The notes below the pieces were generated by a model. The model saw nothing but the letters and a program-made list of their open reading frames with translations, was not told the DNA's origin and ran no database searches. This document shows, in pieces, positions 1 through 8,922 of a stretch of DNA of 64,000 bases. The position numbers and the translations under genes are program-made. Origin of the DNA: Bacteriovoracia bacterium (lineage in GTDB: Bacteria > Bdellovibrionota > UBA1018 > JBFWNL01); contig JBFWNL010000004.1 in assembly GCA_050251055.1 (NCBI GenBank), forward strand, positions 288,001-352,000, written 5' to 3'. How positions within the stretch are numbered: the first letter of the stretch is position 1; every line of letters starts with the position of its first letter.

Positions 1-519
1 TTCGGACTCTTCGCTGGCGGTGGCCACCAGCGCCAGCCCGGCGGCCAACACGCAGCCCGCGACGCCAATCAAGGTCATCCAAGGAGTAGAGGACTGCCAG
101 GCGATGCCACTGCCGATCGCGCCGCACAGCAAAGCCGTCGCAAGTTTACGGGTCGGCTTGGCGGACTCGCCGGAAATAACGAACGTCAACACCGTGAGCA
201 AAATTCCGAGCAGGATCCAGCTTTGCCCCACGACATCGTAGGCGAACCCGACCTGAATACCGACGGGGGAGGACGTAGGGTCGATCCATCCACGCATCCA
301 ACTTAACGAGCCGCCTTCCCTTAAATTTTCCCAAAGGAGCAAAAAGGCACGGACGTTCAAACCAAAAGTCAACGCCGCGACGATTCCAAAGCCCCATCGG
401 ACAAATGCCAGACGCCCTCCCGGGGTGAGGCGCCCGGCGAAATAAAATGCCCAAGCCACTGCAACCAAGGAGAGGGTGGGCAAAACGGCGGTGACGAGCG
501 AGGTGCTTTCGAATCTCAT
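1..519 (-). CDS. NuoL/antiporter-like membrane subunit, N-terminal part (runs off window edge), highly divergent
   Basis: Not in the ORF track. Manual translation from the ATG at 519 gives MRFESTSLVTAVLPTLSLVAVAWAFYF...WMRGWIDPTSSPVGIQVGFAYDVVGQSWILLGILL..., open to position 1. It is hydrophobic and directly follows nuoK. Confidence 0.6.
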   Translation of the reverse strand, partial: MRFESTSLVTAVLPTLSLVAVAWAFYFAGRLTPGGRLAFVRWGFGIVAALTFGLNVRAFLLLWENLREGGSLSWMRGWIDPTSSPVGIQVGFAYDVVGQSWILLGILLTVLTFVISGESAKPTRKLATALLCGAIGSGIAWQSSTPWMTLIGVAGCVLAAGLALVATASEESE

Positions 520-523
520 GGGT

Positions 524-811
524 TCAGTGCCGCAGCTTTCTGAACGTTTCAATATTCACGTTCTTCTTTAGATAAAAAAGCCGGGTCGCGAGCGAAAACA
601 CCACGAGTAGCTGCCCGCAGCCCGCGACGATCACGAAAAACCCGTACACGTGTCCCTGCGACTGCAGGCCCGCCAACACCCCGCCGACCGAAAAACAAGC
701 CGCCGCCGCGTAAAATAACAAGACGATCCCAATGGCCATCCCAATCAGGTTACGCTTCAAAAGGAGGCAAAAAAATCCAATGGCCGCCAGCGCGACGGGA
801 ATGGCGATCAT
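524..811 (-). CDS. nuoK: NADH-quinone oxidoreductase subunit K-like (divergent)
   Basis: 95 aa with 3 TM segments; LLKRNLI motif; GHVYGFFVI; position after nuoJ with ATGA overlap. Confidence 0.75.
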   Translation of the reverse strand: MIAIPVALAAIGFFCLLLKRNLIGMAIGIVLLFYAAAACFSVGGVLAGLQSQGHVYGFFVIVAGCGQLLVVFSLATRLFYLKKNVNIETFRKLRH

Positions 812-1281
812 TCCGACTTTCCCTCCGATCGCGAAACCACGCCCACCCCCAGCATCACCAGGAACAGCGTGAGCGCGAGTATCTCCAGCGGAAGCAGCTG
901 GGAGCCGAACAACGTCGCGCCGAACTGAACCACCTCATTCGGAGGAAACGCGACTTCGCCGCCCTCAGGCAGGTAACGTACCGCGAGACCCGTCACCGTC
1001 GCCAGGCAGGCGGCGGCCAGGAGGGCCGTCGCGCGATAAAAGAAATTCGCCGGGCGTTCCCGCGACCCGAAAAGCACCACGTAGAACAAGAACACCACGG
1101 CGCAAACCGACGTAATCACCCACTGCGAGACCGCCAGGAATTCCGATCCTGTCGCGAGGAAGCTCGCGCCCAAGGCCATGCCGCAAACCCAAAGGGAAAA
1201 CAGCGCGAGCCGATAGTTCGCCGCCATCGCCGCCACCAGCGCCGCCGCGACCGCCAAAATCCCAAAGCTCCAAAAGACCAT
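808..1281 (-). CDS. nuoJ: NADH-quinone oxidoreductase subunit J-like (divergent)
   Basis: 5 TM segments; SEFLAVSQ and LLPLEILALTL motifs; start at ATG 1281 overlaps the nuoI stop. Confidence 0.75.
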   Translation of the reverse strand: MVFWSFGILAVAAALVAAMAANYRLALFSLWVCGMALGASFLATGSEFLAVSQWVITSVCAVVFLFYVVLFGSRERPANFFYRATALLAAACLATVTGLAVRYLPEGGEVAFPPNEVVQFGATLFGSQLLPLEILALTLFLVMLGVGVVSRSEGKSE

Positions 1282-1817
1282 CAATCCTCCATGTTTTCGC
1301 GTTGGCGCGCCTGGATCCACTTTTCCCTCTGCTCGGGCGAAATTCGCCCCCGGCCGAAGGTGGTCACCAGATTCGATACATCATAGACCGCGCCCTCGAA
1401 TTGCTTGGTGTGCACCAGGGAACCCGGGTGGCAAGCCTCCACGCAAAGGCCGCAAAAAATGCATTGCCCGAAGTCGATGTCGTAGACCGAAACCCACTTT
1501 TTCGACGGATCCGGGCCATGCTCGGTCTCCACGGTAATGCACTTCACCGGGCAGATCCGCTCGCATTCCTGGCAACCCGTGCAGCGGTCGATGTCGTTGA
1601 ACAACAATCCGCGCGTGCGGGGCGGCAGATCGTCCTCGGTGCGCGAAGACACCGGATCGGGGTACTGCTCGGTGATCTCCTTACGAAGCTCGCCCGTGTT
1701 AAAAAGATAGTGAAAACCGCTAACGGCGGAAACGAGCACCGACCGCACGCCGGCGCCCACCTGGACTGCGTAAGACATCAGCGTGGAAATCAATGTGTCT
1801 TTCATAGGTATCGACAT
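1281..1817 (-). CDS. nuoI: NADH-quinone oxidoreductase subunit I-like, 2x[4Fe-4S]
   Basis: TEQYP, RTRG, CTGCQECERICP and CIFCGLCVEAC motifs. Confidence 0.9.
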   Translation of the reverse strand: MSIPMKDTLISTLMSYAVQVGAGVRSVLVSAVSGFHYLFNTGELRKEITEQYPDPVSSRTEDDLPPRTRGLLFNDIDRCTGCQECERICPVKCITVETEHGPDPSKKWVSVYDIDFGQCIFCGLCVEACHPGSLVHTKQFEGAVYDVSNLVTTFGRGRISPEQREKWIQARQRENMED

Positions 1818-1827
1818 CCGCTCGTGC

Positions 1828-2892
1828 TCAAAACAAACTCCGTCCTCCGAGCCAGAGGCACTCGATCAGTAGCGCTCCCAACGCGCAGGGTCCCAGGATC
1901 CGCCAGCAAAACTCCGTCGTTTGGTCCGAGCGCGGCTTCGGCAAGGACCCCACCACCCAATGCGTCGCAAACATCAACAAAAAGACCTTCATCACAAGAT
2001 TCACGAGCTGCACGACCTGCAGAAGCAAACCCTCTCCCGTCAGGCTCACCGCCCAGCCCGGCAGCTTCCAACCCCCAAGAAAGGTGACCGTGGTGGCAAG
2101 CGCCCAAAAAAAACCGCCGTAGAACCGCAGCAAGCGCGTGATGGAAAGACTGGGCCCGGCCACTCCCTGAAAAAAACCGCCTTGGAGATCCGCCCGGGAA
2201 AATCCCGCGTCGAAAGGCGAAACCGAAAACACAACCAGGCCGCCCAGGTAATACGCCAGGAAAACGATGGTAAAGAGAGGCCACGGCTGTTGAAAAACCA
2301 GCCACGAGCCTGGCCAGAAACCCTGATGTTCGAGGATGGCCTGCCACCGGTAACCGCCCACGGCCAGTCCCACACAGAGGATGGAAACCATCACCACGAA
2401 TCCCCCCGATAGGGCCTGGGCGGTGTTGCGGATCATTCCGACCCAGCCTTGGGCGTCGCGCCGGTAAAACCCGTAGAACAAAAAGAAAAAGCTCAAAATA
2501 ATCCCGAAGATCAGCGGCACGAACGCGCTCATATCGGTGTCGAATAGATTAAAGCGTGAGGAGAGCGGGATCGTGAGCACGGACGCGAGCGCCACGCACA
2601 GCAAGGTTCCCAGCCAGAAAAGCTCAGCACGGCGAGGCTTGTGAGCGGGTGACTTCTGGATCAGCTTGAAAAAATCCGCGAGTGGCTGGAAATAGCCGCG
2701 CGGCCCGGCCTCCGCAGGGCCCACGCGAGCTTGCAGGTCCGCGAAGAATTTCCGACGGACGTAAACATCCAAATAAGCCATGGGAACGAGCAGAAGCGCA
2801 ACCACGGCGAGGAAAAAACAAAACAGGAAAAGAATATCCGGCAAGCCGGCGAACATTCCCAAGGTTTGGCGAAGCTCCGGGAGTGCGTTCAT
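1828..2892 (-). CDS. nuoH: NADH-quinone oxidoreductase subunit H-like (divergent)
   Basis: RK..A.LQ.RVGP, QPLADFFKL, PFD, FLGGW and PRSDQ motifs; about 8 TM segments. Confidence 0.85.
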   Translation of the reverse strand: MNALPELRQTLGMFAGLPDILFLFCFFLAVVALLLVPMAYLDVYVRRKFFADLQARVGPAEAGPRGYFQPLADFFKLIQKSPAHKPRRAELFWLGTLLCVALASVLTIPLSSRFNLFDTDMSAFVPLIFGIILSFFFLFYGFYRRDAQGWVGMIRNTAQALSGGFVVMVSILCVGLAVGGYRWQAILEHQGFWPGSWLVFQQPWPLFTIVFLAYYLGGLVVFSVSPFDAGFSRADLQGGFFQGVAGPSLSITRLLRFYGGFFWALATTVTFLGGWKLPGWAVSLTGEGLLLQVVQLVNLVMKVFLLMFATHWVVGSLPKPRSDQTTEFCWRILGPCALGALLIECLWLGGRSLF

Positions 2893-4034
2893 CGATCGGC
2901 TTCTCCCACCGAGATATCCAGACTAGCAAGGATCAAAGGGAAATCGCCCACCCACTGTCCGACCAGGATCTCGGGCACCGCCTGTAAGAGCGCCTTGCTC
3001 CCTCCCCGGACCTGCAAGCGATAAGGGGTATTTCCGCCGTCGGAGACCGCATGGACGGCCAGGACTCCGCGTGCCCCTTCGACGCGCGAATACGCCTCGC
3101 CCTCGGGCACCTTGAAATCGAAAAGCTCCTTCACGGCGCGGTATTCGCCCACCGGAATATTCTCGATCGCCTGGCGGATTATGTCGACGCTCTGGACGAT
3201 CTCACGCAGCCGCACGACCACGCGGTCGTGCACGCCGCCCAGCCGATCGCCCTCTCCTGATCCCACCGGCACCTGAAACTCGAACTCTTCGTATCCACTG
3301 TAGGGCGCGGACTTTCGCATGTCCGACACGACCCCGGACGCACGCGCGTCCGGGCCCGTGATGCCGTACCGGCGCACGACCTCCGGGTGCAGGAGCCCCA
3401 CGCCGGCGGACCGGCGCTGAAAAATATGATTCGACGTGAAAAGGTCCTGATACTCGCGTACCCGCGTGCGAATCAGGTCGCACACTTCCGAGACCCGCTC
3501 GATAAATCCGTCGGTGATATCGGTGGCCACCCCGCCGAAGCGGAAATAATTCAGGTTAAAGCGCGAACCGCTGATCAGCTCGAAAAGATCCAGGATTTTT
3601 TCGCGGTCGCGCAGGACGTAATGCATCACCGTCTCGAGCTCCACGGTCTTCGCGATCCGTAGTAGCGCGCCCAAATGGGCGCTGATTCGGTTCAGCTCGC
3701 AGAGCGTGACGCGGATCCGGTTGGCGCGAGGGGAGACCTGCAGGCCGGCGATTTCCTCCACCGCCAGGCACACCGCCAATTCGGTAAATAGCGCGGTCTC
3801 CGAATCGATCCGGTCGGCGTAGGGCATCACGCTGTACCACTGCTGAAGCTCGATGGCCTTTTCCACGCCCCGATGAAAAAAACCTGATTCGCAGTGCACG
3901 CCGGTGATCATCTCGCCGTCGAGCTGCAGCTTCAGCGCCATTGGCCCCGGCAGTCCCGGATGGAATGGCCCCAGCTCCCACGCCGTCTGCACGGTGCTAA
4001 ACAGGTCGGGGCGGTCGTTCTCCATTTCCACCAT
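2889..4034 (-). CDS. nuoD: NADH-quinone oxidoreductase subunit D-like (divergent)
   Basis: GPFHP, GFFHRGVEK, ELNRISAHL, GP..RASG..D.RK..PY and C-terminal GEADR. Start set at ATG 4034, just after the nuoC stop. No NiFe CxxC motifs. Confidence 0.9.
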   Translation of the reverse strand: MVEMENDRPDLFSTVQTAWELGPFHPGLPGPMALKLQLDGEMITGVHCESGFFHRGVEKAIELQQWYSVMPYADRIDSETALFTELAVCLAVEEIAGLQVSPRANRIRVTLCELNRISAHLGALLRIAKTVELETVMHYVLRDREKILDLFELISGSRFNLNYFRFGGVATDITDGFIERVSEVCDLIRTRVREYQDLFTSNHIFQRRSAGVGLLHPEVVRRYGITGPDARASGVVSDMRKSAPYSGYEEFEFQVPVGSGEGDRLGGVHDRVVVRLREIVQSVDIIRQAIENIPVGEYRAVKELFDFKVPEGEAYSRVEGARGVLAVHAVSDGGNTPYRLQVRGGSKALLQAVPEILVGQWVGDFPLILASLDISVGEADR

Positions 4035-4036
4035 GG

Positions 4037-4534
4037 CTAGATTTCCTCGCTTCGCCGCGGACGCGGAATTTCCGGCAGACGGAACTCGCGCCGGAGGGGG
4101 TAGCCCGTGATCTGCTCCGGCACCGGCCGGAAGGAGACGTTTTTTTCCGTGGGATGCGTGAAATCGATCCCTAGGAGCGCCTGCAGTTCCGACTCGAACT
4201 GCCACGCGGACGGGAAGATCGGCTGAATCGAAGGGATCGCGTAAAGTCCGCCGGAATCGGCTTCCAAGCGCGTCCGGAAGATCACCCGCTGCTGGGTACG
4301 CTGGGACACCAGGAAGTATGTCAGCACCATCTTCGACTTCTCTTCGTAGCCGGAGATGCACTCAAGGAAATCCGCCTCGGTTTCGGCGTCCTCACGGCAA
4401 GCCCGCACCGCGACTTCCACCGCGTCCGGGCGCAAAGTGAAAAACGGCACCTGGGCCGCCCCGAAGGTCCCCACCGAGACCACGCCTCCCGAACGGCGAT
4501 CGTTAATAGACGTCTTTAAATTTTTTAGATCCAA
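4037..4534 (-). CDS. nuoC: NADH-quinone oxidoreductase subunit C-like
   Basis: IPSIQPIFPSA..FESE...LLGIDF and GYPLRREF motifs. Confidence 0.8.
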   Translation of the reverse strand: MDLKNLKTSINDRRSGGVVSVGTFGAAQVPFFTLRPDAVEVAVRACREDAETEADFLECISGYEEKSKMVLTYFLVSQRTQQRVIFRTRLEADSGGLYAIPSIQPIFPSAWQFESELQALLGIDFTHPTEKNVSFRPVPEQITGYPLRREFRLPEIPRPRRSEEI

Positions 4535-4973
4535 TGATCTTCTCCTGGAGGGTCAAAAGCCCGTTCATCACCGCTTCGGGTCGCGGTGGACAGCCGGAAA
4601 CGAAAACATCGACCGGAATCAGTTTCTCCACGCCGGGCACGACGGAATAACTGATGCCCGGGGAAAACGCGCCGCCGGTGCACGCGCATCCACCAACGGC
4701 CAAGACGTACTTGGGCGAAGGCATCCGATCGTAAAGTTCCTTCAAAACCGGCGCCAGTCGGTAAGTGATCGCGCCGCTCACGATCAGGAGGTCCGCCTGC
4801 AGCGGATCGACCTGCGGCAGGCTGCCGAAACGTTCGAGGTCGTAGCGGCAACCGAAGGCGTTCGTCACCTCATCCGAGCAGCAGCCGGTGCCGACGGAAA
4901 AATACCAAAGCGATTTCGCGCGAGACCACTTCAGCAACGAATCCACGGACGTGACCTTGAAGAATGCGCTCAC
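4503..4973 (-). CDS. nuoB: NADH-quinone oxidoreductase subunit B
   Basis: GCC..E, RYDLERFG, QADLLIVSG, PKYV.AVGGCA and VDVFVSGCPPRPE. GTG start overlaps the nuoA stop (GTGA). Confidence 0.92.
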   Translation of the reverse strand: MSAFFKVTSVDSLLKWSRAKSLWYFSVGTGCCSDEVTNAFGCRYDLERFGSLPQVDPLQADLLIVSGAITYRLAPVLKELYDRMPSPKYVLAVGGCACTGGAFSPGISYSVVPGVEKLIPVDVFVSGCPPRPEAVMNGLLTLQEKIIGSKKFKDVY

Positions 4974-5362
4974 GCCTCGTCTTCCTTTCGGAAGGACTTC
5001 AGCCATTCGAGATCGCCCTTGCGGATCGCGTAGAAGAGCCCCAGGCCCAGAAAAGCTCCGATAGAAACGATCGCGGCCAATCCCCGCAATCCGGTTTCGG
5101 CGGAGGAGGAATTCAACGATTCGCGGAACGCCGCCACGCAGGGAGCGAGCACCAATACCAAGAGCACGAGCAATGTCGCGATGTTACCGAATAAAGAGAT
5201 ACGGGGGTTCAGCTTCGCATCCCAAACGATCGGCTTTAGCGGCGTCGCAGTTCCACCGAGCGGCCCGCCATCCCGACGAAAGAATCGCCCCATCAGCAGC
5301 ACGAGGATCGGCACACAGATGCTAAATAGAGCGCATATAATGATAACTACATACGAGCCCAA
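4970..5362 (-). CDS. nuoA: NADH-quinone oxidoreductase subunit A-like (divergent); start uncertain
   Basis: 3 TM segments; C-terminal GLFYAIRKGDLEW; first gene of the operon. TTG at 5362 follows a G-rich RBS-like stretch. Confidence 0.75.
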   Translation of the reverse strand: MGSYVVIIICALFSICVPILVLLMGRFFRRDGGPLGGTATPLKPIVWDAKLNPRISLFGNIATLLVLLVLVLAPCVAAFRESLNSSSAETGLRGLAAIVSIGAFLGLGLFYAIRKGDLEWLKSFRKEDEA

Positions 5363-5460
5363 GCCGTCCCCCGCGAAAGTTACCCCAAAAGTCGAACAAA
5401 ATTCGAACTTTAGGCTACTGAAGTTGAAAACCAGTGTCAAGGTTGGGTAAGGTCGATTGA

Positions 5461-8400
5461 ATGAATTCGGGTGAACTGCCCCTCATCTTGAAACAGATGG
5501 GTACCCTACCGGTTTTCCGGCTGGGCGGCGCATTACCTTCGGCCCAAGCCTACCTTTGCCGCCAACTTCCGCATTCGCTTTCCATCGTCGTCTGCCAGGA
5601 CGAGGACGCCGCGACGGTCTTCGCGCAGAACTTACAAGCCCTGAGTTTGGAAGATTCGGACGCCCCGCTTGTTTTGTCACTACCCAGCTGGGAGCAATCC
5701 CCTTACAGCGCGATCTCGCCGTCAATCCAGGTGCGTCAATCCCGCGCCCGCGCGCTCGCGCACGTCCTCGAAAATCAAGACGGCGGAAGCGGGCGTGGCC
5801 TGCTTGACCCGACATCGCGTGGCCTCATCGTCGTCACGACCCTGGTCGCCCTGAGCCAACGTACCTGTCCGCCTTCGCTCTTTCGGGAAGCTCGCATCGT
5901 TTTGGAAAAAAACGGGGTGGTTGGTCAACGCGAGCAGCTCACCTCCCGGCTGCGAGACGCGGGCTACCTGCAGGTGGATCCGGTGGAAGATCCGGGCACG
6001 TTCGCGGTAAGGGGCGACATCGTCGACGTGTACCCTCCCCAAGCCGAGGCGCCTCTCAGAATTGAGCTCTTCGACGACCAGGTGGAACGCATCCGGGAAT
6101 TCGATCCCGCCACCCAACGCACAAGGACCGGTGTCGAACACGCGCGCTTCGTGATTTATCCCGCCCGCGAAGTCCTGATCCACCCCTCCAACCGCGAGGC
6201 CTTCCGTCAGCGCCTCAAACAGCGCGCCGATGACTTGGGCATCCCTCGCCAAACCCGCGATCCCGTCCTGGAAACCCTCGCTAACGGATTCTATCCCGAG
6301 GGCGCGGACTACTGGTCCGCACTGGCGTATGAAGGAAAACACGTTTTTCGTGATTTCCTCGGGAAAAATGCGACTTTTTTCTTCTCCGACGAGTTAGGCT
6401 GCCGGCAAGCGTTTGAGGCTTTCCAAGTCCGCCAGCGTGAACTGTCCGAGGAGGCAAAGGGCTCCGGTCGGGTGGTTCTGGATTTTCCGGACATATTTTC
6501 GAAGGTCGATGCGGAAGCCGCAGCGTTCGATAGTTACCGGCGGGTTTACTTCGATGCCTTGGAGCTCGCCGACCGCGCGCTCGACGTGCGCGTGGAAACT
6601 TCGCCGATCGTGGCGAACTCCCCCGACACCGCCCGTGGCGCCGAACGAATGGCTCAGTTCGCGGCCCGGATTAAATCCCTGGGCGCATCGCCCACGCTGC
6701 TGGGTTTCGCATCCACCCAAAGCCAGATCGATCGCATGCAGTACCTTTTCCAAGAGAACGGGTTGCCTCCGGCGCGTTGGCGGATCGGAGCGTGGGGCGA
6801 GGGCTTCGCCTGGCCAGCGCAAAACCTCGCGGTATTCTCTCAGGCCGATGTCTTGGGCGAGACCAAGAAACCTTCGACGACTGCACCCAAGCAATGGTCG
6901 GGGCTGCAGAACCTCTCGGACCTGAACGTGGACGACACGATCGTTCACGTCGAACACGGGATTGGCGTTTACCGCGGGATATCGCGGCTCCAGATCATGG
7001 GGGGCGCTTCCGACTTCCTGCTGATCGAATACGACGAACAAGCGAAGCTTTACTTGCCCGTCTATCGCATCAATCTCATCCAGAAGTACGTGGGTGGCCG
7101 CGAGGGAATGAAACTCGCCAAGCTCGGCGCCGGCGCATTCGAAAAGACGAAGGCGAAGGTGCGGGATTCGGTGAAGAAACTCGCCATCAACCTTCTCGAG
7201 GTCTATGCGCAGCGAAAAATCCAAAAAGGCCTGCGTTTCCCGGCCCGGGACGCGATTTTTCAAGAATTCGAGGACCGCTTCCCTTTCCAGGAAACCCCGG
7301 ATCAGACGCAGGCGATCGAGGATTCGTTCCGGGACCTCGAATCGGGACGCATCATGGACCGCTTGATCTGCGGTGACGTAGGGTTCGGCAAGACGGAGGT
7401 CGCGATCCGCGCGGCTTTCCAAGCCGTGATCAGCGGCAAACAGGTGGCCGTGCTCGTGCCGACCACCATCCTCTGCATCCAGCACGAACAGACGTTCAAG
7501 AACCGCATCCAAAAGTTCCCGATTCGCGTGGAGTCTATCTCGCGCTTCAAAACCCGTCCCGAGCAGCAGAAATTACTGCAGGAGCTCGCGGAGGGAAAAA
7601 TCGACGTTCTCATCGGAACGCACCGCCTATTATCAAAGGACGTGAACTTCAAAAAGCTCGGGCTCATCATCGTCGACGAAGAGCACCGCTTTGGTGTCGA
7701 GCACAAAGAGAAGCTGCGCGCCATGAAGGCCAACACCCACGTAATGACGTTGACGGCGACCCCCATCCCGCGAACCTTACATATGGCGCTCGCAGGGATC
7801 CGCGACATCAGCCTCATGACCACGCCGCCCGTGCATCGGTTGCCGATCAAGACTTTCGTCGCGAAGTACGACGAAACCCTCATCAAGCAGGCGATCGAAA
7901 CCGAGCTGGCGCGCGACGGCCAGGTCTTTTTCCTCCATAACCGGGTGCAGACCATCTTCCGCCAGGCCGAAAAGATCCAAGCTTTGGTGCCCGCGGCGAA
8001 GGTGCGGGTCGGCCACGCCCAGATGACGGAAAAAGAACTCGAAGACACAATGCTGGCGTTCTATCGCAAGGAATTCAACGTTTTGGTCTGCACGACCATC
8101 ATCGAATCGGGGTTGGATATCCCGTCCGCGAACACGATCCTCATCAATCACGCCGATCGCTTCGGGCTCGCCCAGCTCTACCAACTGCGCGGGCGCGTCG
8201 GCCGCAGCAACCAACGCGGGTACGCTTACCTACTGCTGTCGAATGACCTCGCCCTTACCGAGGATGCCAAACGAAGGCTGGAGGTCATCCAGCGTTTCGT
8301 GGAACTCGGCAGCGGCTTCCAAATCGCCTCGCATGATCTCGAAATCCGTGGTGGAGGGAACGTGCTAGGCCCCGAGCAGTCGGGCAACATCGCCTCCGTG

Positions 8401-8922
8401 GGCTTCGAGCTCTATACCGAACTTTTGGACGAAGCGATCCGCGAGCTGCAAGGGAAGGGGACTCCGCTCGAGGACCCCGGTAAGGAACCCGAGATCAAAA
8501 CTCCGTTCCCGGCTTTTTTGGATGACCGCTACATTCCGGACGTACACCAACGCTTATCGGTTTACCGCCGACTTGCCGGCGCCGCCGAAGAAGCCGAACT
8601 CGTGGCGATCGAAGAGGAACTCGCGGACCGCTACGGGAAGCTGCCGACCGAGGCCGAAAATCTGCTTTGGGTCATTCGCTTAAAGCAGCTCTTGAAACGC
8701 TCCCAGATCGAATCCATGACCGTCGGCGACCGCAAGTACACGCTTAAACCAGGCGCCGGCCACCGGTTCGACCCCCAGAAAATCCTGCAGGCCGTGCGCG
8801 CGGAAGCGGGTCGCATCCAAGTCATGCCCGACTCCCGCCTCGTGGTGGCTTTGCCCCCCGAACAAAAAAACTCCATCAAAGATTTGGCGTTCCACCTGGA
8901 AAAAACTCTCGCGAATTTCTAA
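5461..8922 (+). CDS. mfd: Transcription-repair coupling factor
   Basis: UvrB-homology module (FAVRGDIVDVYP), VHVEHGIG (RID), CGDVGFGKTEVA, DEEHRFGV, QLRGRVGRS and C-terminal TRCF domain. Confidence 0.98.
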   Translation: MNSGELPLILKQMGTLPVFRLGGALPSAQAYLCRQLPHSLSIVVCQDEDAATVFAQNLQALSLEDSDAPLVLSLPSWEQSPYSAISPSIQVRQSRARALAHVLENQDGGSGRGLLDPTSRGLIVVTTLVALSQRTCPPSLFREARIVLEKNGVVGQREQLTSRLRDAGYLQVDPVEDPGTFAVRGDIVDVYPPQAEAPLRIELFDDQVERIREFDPATQRTRTGVEHARFVIYPAREVLIHPSNREAFRQRLKQRADDLGIPRQTRDPVLETLANGFYPEGADYWSALAYEGKHVFRDFLGKNATFFFSDELGCRQAFEAFQVRQRELSEEAKGSGRVVLDFPDIFSKVDAEAAAFDSYRRVYFDALELADRALDVRVETSPIVANSPDTARGAERMAQFAARIKSLGASPTLLGFASTQSQIDRMQYLFQENGLPPARWRIGAWGEGFAWPAQNLAVFSQADVLGETKKPSTTAPKQWSGLQNLSDLNVDDTIVHVEHGIGVYRGISRLQIMGGASDFLLIEYDEQAKLYLPVYRINLIQKYVGGREGMKLAKLGAGAFEKTKAKVRDSVKKLAINLLEVYAQRKIQKGLRFPARDAIFQEFEDRFPFQETPDQTQAIEDSFRDLESGRIMDRLICGDVGFGKTEVAIRAAFQAVISGKQVAVLVPTTILCIQHEQTFKNRIQKFPIRVESISRFKTRPEQQKLLQELAEGKIDVLIGTHRLLSKDVNFKKLGLIIVDEEHRFGVEHKEKLRAMKANTHVMTLTATPIPRTLHMALAGIRDISLMTTPPVHRLPIKTFVAKYDETLIKQAIETELARDGQVFFLHNRVQTIFRQAEKIQALVPAAKVRVGHAQMTEKELEDTMLAFYRKEFNVLVCTTIIESGLDIPSANTILINHADRFGLAQLYQLRGRVGRSNQRGYAYLLLSNDLALTEDAKRRLEVIQRFVELGSGFQIASHDLEIRGGGNVLGPEQSGNIASVGFELYTELLDEAIRELQGKGTPLEDPGKEPEIKTPFPAFLDDRYIPDVHQRLSVYRRLAGAAEEAELVAIEEELADRYGKLPTEAENLLWVIRLKQLLKRSQIESMTVGDRKYTLKPGAGHRFDPQKILQAVRAEAGRIQVMPDSRLVVALPPEQKNSIKDLAFHLEKTLANF

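Follow-up and report, generated by a model that had tools for sequence, protein, structure and literature searches.

Introduction

In complex I, quinone is described as receiving its two substrate protons from a His/Asp pair, key glutamates lie in the E-channel, and a relay through transmembrane helices (TM) 5, 7, 8 and 12 runs along the central axis (Sazanov 2023, PMC10212512). Complexes whose NuoD subunit lacks the quinone-site triad occur in 11-gene operons of Sulfolobus, Nautiliales and Desulfurobacteriales and have been read as pre-quinone forms; the same source notes that Fpo keeps only Tyr87 (Degli Esposti 2015, PMC4758237). Enzymes with eleven subunits and no donor dedicated to them are an established type (Moparthi and Hagerhall 2011, PMC3144371), and two complex I isozymes are found together in ~3% of bacterial genomes (Spero et al. 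2015, PMC4453560). For the phylum Bdellovibrionota, two nuo clusters of another kind appear in a recent Peredibacter paper (PMC13147790). In this study, we analysed a 64,000-nucleotide stretch of a Bacteriovoracia bacterium of this phylum (assembly GCA_050251055.1, contig JBFWNL010000004.1, positions 288,001 to 352,000; hereafter the window), which carries nuoD', a gene for a NuoD-like subunit without the quinone triad. It is the fourth gene of an 11-gene minus-strand operon, nuoA'B'C'D'H'I'J'K'L'M'N', whose products we call Nuo'. This divergent operon and a canonical 14-gene nuo operon form a tandem that is conserved in the order to which the organism belongs. The sequence features described below suggest that Nuo' would be unable to act as a quinone-reducing proton pump through the canonical mechanism, and this loss of canonical function is well supported by sequence.

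Results

NuoD' keeps the family fold without the quinone-site residues

On the minus strand of the window, nuoD' runs from an ATG at 4034-4032 to a TGA at 2891-2889. A longer open reading frame (ORF; to 4361) runs into the preceding gene, and the start at 4034 is backed by a 381-residue entry of the protein collection (P0001). Translation of the plus strand across 2889-4034 gives many stops. An earlier reading made from the sequence alone (the sequence-only reading) had placed a NuoD-like gene at exactly these coordinates, which are correct and have to be read on the minus strand.

NuoD' belongs to the NuoD/49-kDa family, as it scores 254.5 bits with Pfam PF00346 (cut-off 24) and 362.5 bits with NCBIfam NF004739, barely above the cut-off of 360. 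It stays under the cut-offs of the stricter equivalog TIGR01962 (324.7 bits, cut-off 459.35) and of the FpoD model NF040602 (298.7 bits, cut-off 600), and the automatic annotation label on these proteins is 'NADH-quinone oxidoreductase subunit D'. The best solved relative is Thermus thermophilus Nqo4 (2fug_4, phmmer E value 1.1e-74), followed by cyanobacterial NdhH and mycobacterial NuoD; MBS (6u8y_L, E value 5e-56) and Mbh (6cfw_L, 2e-40) are far weaker matches in the PDB than complex I. An AlphaFold2 model from a 72-sequence alignment has a mean predicted local distance difference test (pLDDT) score of 95.8 and a predicted template-modelling (pTM) score of 0.93. When it was searched with Foldseek, the top match was mycobacterial NuoD (8e9h_D, TMq 0.92), solved NuoD chains gave TM scores of 0.87-0.92, and the top 50 were without exception complex I or NDH-1 subunits of the 49-kDa type (NuoD, NDUFS2, NdhH), so that the modelled fold is that of this family. 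The large subunit of a group 4 [NiFe] hydrogenase was considered and rejected, because NuoD' reads GPFHPGLPGP and DISVGEADR at the CxxC and DPCxxC places and has no Cys there, whereas true hydrogenase-like representatives read CGIC and DPCF.C.

The quinone site itself is replaced. In the phmmer/HMMER alignment with 2fug_4, H25 of NuoD' lies at Nqo4 His34, where the His is kept, whereas P29 (codon 3950-3948) lies at His38, S78 (codon 3803-3801) at Tyr87 and T130 (codon 3647-3645) at Asp139. None of the three residues that mark a quinone-reducing complex I is therefore present. Across the 119 closest homologues, at 50-57% identity, the column of His38 holds Pro in 113, Ser in 3, Thr in 1, Gly in 1 and a gap in 1; the Tyr87 column holds Pro in 114, Ser in 2, Ala in 2 and His in 1; and the Asp139 column holds Ala in 78, Ser in 29, Val in 6, Thr in 5 and Gly in 1, and never Asp. 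Because the same columns are replaced throughout these homologues, the replacement of the triad is not a matter of chance or sequencing noise. The replacements are themselves conserved, as LPGP and as LDPE with an acidic residue after the former Tyr. In contrast, all four residues (H, H, Y and D) are found in the canonical NuoD that this genome also encodes, and in the short canonical NuoD of all 11 loci from other families of the phylum (L036-L046).

The absence of the His/Tyr/Asp set, which the sequence-only reading had proposed, is thus borne out by both the alignment to Nqo4 and the clade-wide columns. The strings on which it relied, GPFHPGLPGPMAL, DRIDS and AHLGALLRIAKT, are all present in the NuoD' translation, together with the scaffold motifs HRGVEK, ELNRI and GEADR.

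NuoD' orthologues also share a clade-specific insertion of ~5 residues (GSGEGDRLGG), conserved Cys89 and Cys185 and, in most of them, a Cys at 327 beside His328. The homologues that bear names are assigned to Bdellovibrionota, Oligoflexia or Bdellovibrionia; one (P0013, 55% identity) is labelled as a Methylotenera metagenome-assembled genome, by binning error or transfer.

Iron-sulphur ligands are kept and membrane-arm residues are lost

The prime subunits of up to 19 genomes were aligned with their canonical paralogues in MAFFT, and the query was checked against solved chains with HMMER. Residue numbers of Escherichia coli NuoK and T. thermophilus Nqo4 were counted from the alignments, and all others are those of the canonical proteins of this genome; we follow Sazanov (2023, PMC10212512) in treating these residues as important for coupling. 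The iron-sulphur (Fe-S) sites are retained: each of 17 NuoB' has the full set of four Cys ligands for cluster N2, and 18 of 19 NuoI' have all eight Cys of N6a and N6b, the exception being a split gene. NuoB' reads DPLQAD where the canonical protein has SPRQSD. The sequence-only reading had pointed to this difference, which is real in the query but only partly a property of the clade, as the Leu is peculiar to the query genome, 11 of 17 NuoB' retain the Arg of SPRQxD and 15 of 17 have Asp in place of the Ser. Its FESE is likewise found in NuoC', which retains the E.E..LFG motif but not the Arg. A three-residue insertion after GG.F (FSPGISYS versus IFN---VYS) is a further, clade-specific feature of NuoB'.

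The residues of the E-channel are replaced. In NuoH', none of Y165, E166, E227, R230, E237, E239, Y246 and Y250 is kept in any of 17 sequences, and the motifs SYE and AE.NR and the acidic TM5-6 loop EGESE...EY are lost; aligned to chloroplast NdhA (7eu3_A), the query reads SGG, VVFSV, GFSRADL and FQGVAG. The ECG loop and the FDvE acids are gone from NuoA' (D70 and E72 kept in 0 of 13), and the TM3 Tyr from NuoJ' (0 of 15). At the Glu36 position of NuoK', Glu is found in none and Gln in 15 of 16 sequences, the query having V30; at the Glu72 position, Glu is again absent and Gln occurs in 10 of 16, including the query (both by comparison with E. coli 3rko_K).

The antiporter-like subunits show the same pattern. 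In NuoM', Gln replaces the TM5 Glu and Arg the TM7 Lys in 17 of 17 sequences, Pro replaces the TM8 Lys in 16 of 17 and the TM12 Glu is kept in none of 17; the query reads Q, R, P and Q at TM5, 7, 8 and 12 (HMMER against Paracoccus Nqo13, 8qby_M). Among 17 NuoN' rows, which leave out two operons of a Tyr87-keeping type described below, the TM5 Glu is never found (Gln in 12) and neither is the TM7 Lys. The query reads Q, A, P and R at the four helices in HMMER alignments with 6hum_B and 8qby_N, the MAFFT table giving F at TM7. All six key positions of NuoL' are lost in each of 15 sequences in the MAFFT table, and the profile alignment agrees. The whole NuoL' protein had no Pfam match at E <= 0.1, PF00361 included, and no phmmer match in the PDB, where its N-terminal 184 residues gave only a chance immunoglobulin match; a profile of 15 NuoL' orthologues nevertheless matched NdhF (6hum_F) with an E value of 2e-14 over the full length, including the C-terminal helix and anchor. 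Canonical paralogues keep all of these residues, bar Tyr to Phe in two NuoH rows and S and Q for Y62 and E152 in one NuoJ row. Judged from these alignments, conserved, non-titratable residues (Pro, Gln, Arg) have largely taken the place of the relay in the three antiporter-like subunits, and Nuo' lacks nearly all of the TM5/7/8/12 Lys and Glu of these subunits as well as the E-channel residues of NuoK, NuoH, NuoA and NuoJ that mark a proton-pumping complex I.

The tandem of two nuo operons is conserved in the order

Beyond the window, in the flanking 20 kb, nuoM' and nuoN' are followed by a canonical 14-gene operon on the same strand (A, B, C, D of 427 residues, E, F, G and H-N), which begins 29 nt past the nuoN' stop; no terminator-like site was found in this 29-nt gap of the query genome. 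The 11-gene operon contains no nuoE, nuoF or nuoG, nuoD' being followed directly by nuoH', and no candidate donor or acceptor gene. Within the 25-gene cluster, which was the part of the genome covered for NuoE, NuoF and NuoG, these genes occur only in the canonical operon.

To describe the distribution, 201 genomes across the phylum were searched for D'-like genes, and the 29 best-matching loci, the window genome excluded, were read. Sixteen of them (L018-L031, L034 and L035), all of the order of the window, lack both His38 and Tyr87; two (L032 and L033) keep Tyr87 and have lost His38 and Asp139; and the remaining 11 (L036-L046), all from other families of the phylum, have canonical NuoD. When 14-20 kb around the gene was fetched from 18 relatives in the order, A' to N' lay directly upstream of the canonical operon, on the same strand, in all 18. 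In 17 of them, stop-to-stop ORF bounds put N' and A anywhere between overlapping by 151 nt and lying 70 nt apart; the value for the eighteenth (L062) is an artefact. In five further genomes of the order (families f2, f4, f5, f7 and f8), a D'-like gene and canonical D lie 8-10 kb apart; three of these D'-like genes lack His38 and Tyr87 and two keep Tyr87. The pair of D' and canonical D was thus found in all 24 genomes of the order that were examined in detail, the window genome included, the other nine in the sample being left out. Beyond the named genomes, 50 of the 144 near-full-length cluster representatives nearest to the query lack both His38 and Tyr87. A search of genome contigs with NuoD' alone returned only distant canonical NuoD of other phyla.

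Upstream operons whose D' keeps Tyr87 and lacks His38 and Asp139 (hereafter Y-type) were found in L061 (G189), L062 (G132), L066 (G094) and L073 (G122). In L061 and L062, the two that were checked for the membrane arm, NuoM reads E, R, H, K, H and E and so keeps five of six key residues, and NuoN keeps the TM5 Glu; the key residues of NuoK and NuoL are already gone. This gradation suggests that Y-type operons represent an apparent intermediate stage in a stepwise loss of residues. In L037-L046, the short canonical nuoD stands in a B-C-D-I arrangement with no H after D, which is the 'split' nuo layout reported for Bdellovibrio.

A NuoD tree (IQ-TREE quick search, LG+C20 PMSF, 88 rows, hydrogenase-like outgroup) places all D' without Tyr87, together with nine cluster representatives of the same kind, in one clade (SH-like approximate likelihood ratio test (SH-aLRT) 97), which joins the Tyr87-keeping D' in a clade of 38 rows (SH-aLRT 95). 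The canonical NuoD of the tandem and the short canonical NuoD of the phylum fall together in a different clade of 34 rows (SH-aLRT 96), and a FastTree analysis of 144 rows gave the same grouping. As D' and canonical D lie in separate supported clades, a recent duplication of the neighbouring canonical nuoD was rejected as the origin of D'; the deep position of D' may be exaggerated, because its branches are long. Recent transfer marked by deviant base composition was also considered and rejected, as the GC contents of the nuo' genes (0.55-0.63) and of the canonical nuo genes (0.53-0.61) are alike.

Prime genes evolve under relaxed constraint

In the 18 fetched loci, the 11 prime ORFs are full length wherever detectable, except that D' is split in L059 and I' in L061. 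Rates of nonsynonymous (dN) and synonymous (dS) substitution and their ratio, omega, were estimated by the NG86 method from a single pair of the same genus (L063/L064), as dS was saturated or undefined for nearly all genes in four other pairs. For the prime genes, dN is 0.30-0.59 and omega 0.08-0.40 (six of seven genes, dS of B' being undefined), and for the canonical genes dN is 0.04-0.20 and omega 0.02-0.15; these omega values are rough because dS is saturated. At the protein level, the prime genes thus evolve 5-8 times as fast as the canonical genes, yet their dN stays below the saturated dS. GC content at third codon positions is 0.67-0.78 in the nuo' genes and 0.67-0.85 in the canonical genes, in which nuoA (0.67) is an outlier and the other 13 genes range from 0.76 to 0.85. 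On these rates, the prime genes are under constraint that is looser than that on the canonical genes, relaxed but real. Furthermore, the residues that stand in for the lost ones are conserved in turn, a pattern that decay would not yield.

Gene content of the left part of the window

The features of the operon within the window are listed in Table 1. NuoA' scores 17.5 bits with PF00507, under the cut-off of 23.3. The start of the divergent mfd gene lies ~20 nt from the longest possible nuoA' start, and the true start of nuoA' is therefore probably further downstream. Outside the window, the canonical nuoG (L004, 9564-10964, minus strand) has only 466 codons; NuoG/Nqo3 proteins typically have 700-900 residues.

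Table 1. Features of the nuo' operon and its divergent neighbour, in window positions.
Feature	Positions	Strand	Length	Type and basis
nuoL' (5' part)	1..552	minus	655 aa overall	gene crosses the left window end
nuoK'	524..811	minus	95 aa	ND4L-type; PF00420 30.7 bits
nuoJ'	808..1320	minus	170 aa	ND6-type; PF00499 36.6 bits (cut-off 33.2)
nuoI'	1281..1817	minus	178 aa	two CxxCxxCxxxC motifs (N6a, N6b); Fer4 families; TIGR01971 86.8 bits, under cut-off 113
nuoH'	1828..2892	minus	354 aa	ND1-type; PF00146 149.1 bits
nuoD'	2889..4034	minus	381 aa	49-kDa/NuoD-type subunit without quinone triad
nuoC'	4037..4534	minus	165 aa	30-kDa-type, weakly conserved; PF00329 58.3 bits; TIGR01961 44 bits, under cut-off 122
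nuoB'	4503..5006	minus	167 aa	PSST-type; PF01058 92.2 bits; NF005012 188.8 bits (cut-off 116)
nuoA'	4970..5440	minus	<=156 aa, start uncertain	ND3-type; assigned by position and ortholog alignment
mfd	5461-8922	plus	1153 aa	transcription-repair coupling factor; divergent from nuoA'

Discussion

We propose, with a probability of roughly 0.6, that Nuo' is a selected paralogue of complex I, preserved in structure, and that it acts neither as a canonical quinone reductase nor as a canonical proton pump. Such a catalytically remodelled paralogue, a 'pseudo-complex I', would be kept across one order of Bdellovibrionota by a selection looser than that on the canonical enzyme, and would most likely be co-transcribed with the canonical operon. 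It may assist the real complex I, as an accessory or structural partner, or else be a non-pumping redox module. The sequence-only reading had inferred either an acceptor other than a normal quinone or no acceptor. This is compatible with all of the evidence, but it is too narrow, as the coupling residues of the membrane arm are lost too; with the whole of the canonical coupling machinery missing, more is at stake than the identity of the acceptor.

A more specific version, which we put forward only tentatively, is that Nuo' is an 11-subunit, L-shaped pseudoenzyme that folds and binds Fe-S clusters, has ceased to reduce quinone or move protons, and is maintained to work with the downstream canonical complex I. 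It might, for example, serve as a permanent partner or scaffold within a hetero-supercomplex, or it might give the shared NuoEFG module a place for docking or regulation, and the replacement of Glu by Gln and of Lys by Arg would freeze its membrane arm in one charge state.

Several observations weigh against our proposal of a preserved, non-canonical paralogue. The alignments of NuoL', NuoA', NuoJ' and NuoK' rest on 20-35% identity, and the omega values share the roughness noted above. The loss of residues is also incomplete: PFD and R..R.DQ are mostly kept in NuoH', the C-terminal Glu is kept in 12 of 15 NuoJ' and the TM12 Lys in 10 of 17 NuoN'. Invariant Fe-S ligands are expected of an active redox enzyme and speak against a purely structural role, and a non-canonical site or ion path, invisible in sequence alone, could be built from the newly conserved positions, namely the LPGP loop, DPE, Gln and Arg. 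Signs of erosion are present in some lineages and would suit a slowly decaying relic. The D'-like gene of one locus (G185:C22:45709-46830, L030/L059) has one in-frame TAG and that of another (G057:C4:351973-353055, L067) one in-frame TAA, through pseudogenization or assembly error, and the B' and D' ORFs abut or overlap in L067 (family f5) and L074 (family f4), leaving no space for nuoC'; in L074, H' was not detected between D' and I' either. Finally, the sequencing runs that contain the stretch are DNA of one study only, one of them perhaps from the source sample, and none is RNA.

These points bear on three other explanations. The one closest to the sequence-only reading is that Nuo' is an active oxidoreductase with different chemistry, in which electrons from ferredoxin or flavodoxin, or from NuoEFG borrowed from the adjacent operon, would pass through N6a, N6b and N2 to a non-quinone acceptor in a remodelled pocket, with energy conservation either absent or achieved via a non-canonical path. 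All 12 Fe-S Cys are indeed conserved in sequences that have otherwise diverged to 45-60% identity, and the conserved substitutions at the site (LPGP, and LDPE with its acidic residue) would fit a new pocket. There are also precedents: 11-subunit enzymes without a dedicated donor module (PMC3144371), triad-less NuoD complexes presumed to transfer electrons from ferredoxin to NADP+, like Mbx (PMC4758237), MBS as a solved non-quinone relative (6u8y_L), and Syntrophobacter, in which two gene sets were predicted to have a single nuoEFG in common (PMC4453560). However, the operon brings no candidate acceptor or donor gene, NuoD' has no Cys or metal motif at the former NiFe/quinone positions, and the prime genes evolve 5-8 times faster than the canonical ones. 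Moreover, the Lys/Glu relay of Nuo' is almost entirely neutralized; to our knowledge, some of this relay is retained in every known active member of the family. We therefore consider an active enzyme of this kind rather unlikely. It is far less probable that Nuo' is simply a divergent isozyme that still reduces the quinone of the cell by means of other residues or a shallower site. The NuoD fold, the HRGxEK motif, N2 and the frame of NuoH are retained, Tyr87 mutants are still active with short-chain quinones (PMC4758237), and the sister Y-type operons (G189, G132, G094 and G122) retain Tyr87. Nevertheless, His38, Tyr87 and Asp139 are all replaced by residues that cannot donate a proton, mostly Pro, Pro and Ala; both substrate protons are described as coming from the His/Asp pair (PMC10212512). 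The parts of the cavity lining contributed by the TM5-6 loop of NuoH' and by the loop of NuoA' have been rewritten as well.

The erosion described above would be accounted for if Nuo' were a relic without function and in slow decay, the remainder of an ancestral 11-subunit enzyme that the canonical operon beside it had rendered redundant. The fast evolution of the prime genes and the loss of catalytic residues throughout are in line with such a relic, as are the in-frame stops in D' (G185 and G057), the split I' (L061), the missing space for C' (L067 and L074), the gradient from Y-type operons, with five of six NuoM key residues, to fully neutralized ones, and a GC content at third codon positions slightly below that of the canonical genes. 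We nevertheless judge this improbable. About 10 kb with 11 ORFs has stayed intact and collinear across families whose canonical subunits are only 55-84% identical, dN is well under the saturated dS, the 12 Fe-S Cys ligands are all retained, and the replacements are themselves conserved (Gln 17/17, Arg 17/17 and Pro 16/17 in NuoM'; Pro 113/119 in NuoD').

Research on complex I leans on a few invariant residues, namely the His/Tyr/Asp site of NuoD, the glutamates of the E-channel and the Lys/Glu relay of TM5/7/8/12, and nearly all of them have apparently been removed at once in a full 11-subunit paralogue. This removal coexists with intact genes, invariant Fe-S ligands and an operon joined to a normal one, across an order of Bdellovibrionota. 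If Nuo' assembles, it would offer a natural control for coupling models in which all sites are mutated, and would raise the new question of the use of a complex I scaffold that neither reduces quinone nor pumps. If it turns over instead, a new acceptor and a new ion path would be required. The automatic annotation of these NuoD' proteins as 'NADH-quinone oxidoreductase subunit D' probably overstates the respiratory capacity of these genomes.

Full-text searches, with subscription journals outside their scope, found no report of such a tandem pair or of a complex I paralogue with a neutralized membrane arm, and comparison with the known systems shows what Nuo' shares with each. With canonical complex I (NuoA-N; T. 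thermophilus Nqo1-15, E. coli and Paracoccus), it shares the eleven core subunit types, the gene order without EFG, the NuoD fold, the Cys of N2, N6a and N6b and the C-terminal lateral helix and anchor of NuoL. Unlike canonical complex I, its operon lacks nuoEFG, the quinone triad, the E-channel acids and the Lys and Glu of TM5/7/8/12, and its NuoL' and NuoA' fall below the Pfam thresholds. The second isozymes of Spero et al. (2015, PMC4453560) resemble it in that two nuo sets from different clades occur in one genome; they are treated as functional, and the available sections of that work contain no Bdellovibrio case, tandem or loss of catalytic residues. MBS, Mbx and the group 4 [NiFe] hydrogenases (Mbh, Ech and Hyc) are members of the superfamily that do not reduce quinone, but Nuo' differs from them in having the gene set and order of complex I, not an Mrp-type set, and no NiFe Cys. 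Like FpoD of Fpo and NdhH of NDH-1, NuoD' is a short form (381 residues) that aligns end to end with the FpoD model and NdhH, and the sister Y-type D' share the pattern given for Fpo in the available part of PMC4758237, with Tyr87 present and His38 and Asp139 absent. In contrast to Fpo and NDH-1, the query NuoD' also lacks Tyr87, and its operon lacks FpoF, FpoO and the accessory genes of NDH-1. The NUO11 operons (PMC4758237) are similar in having 11 genes, no N module and a NuoD without the three quinone-site residues. Those cases are described as the organism's own enzyme, whereas Nuo' stands in tandem with a full canonical operon, in Bdellovibrionota of aerobic type, and has a neutralized arm. 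Nuo' is thus a novel variant inside the complex I superfamily.

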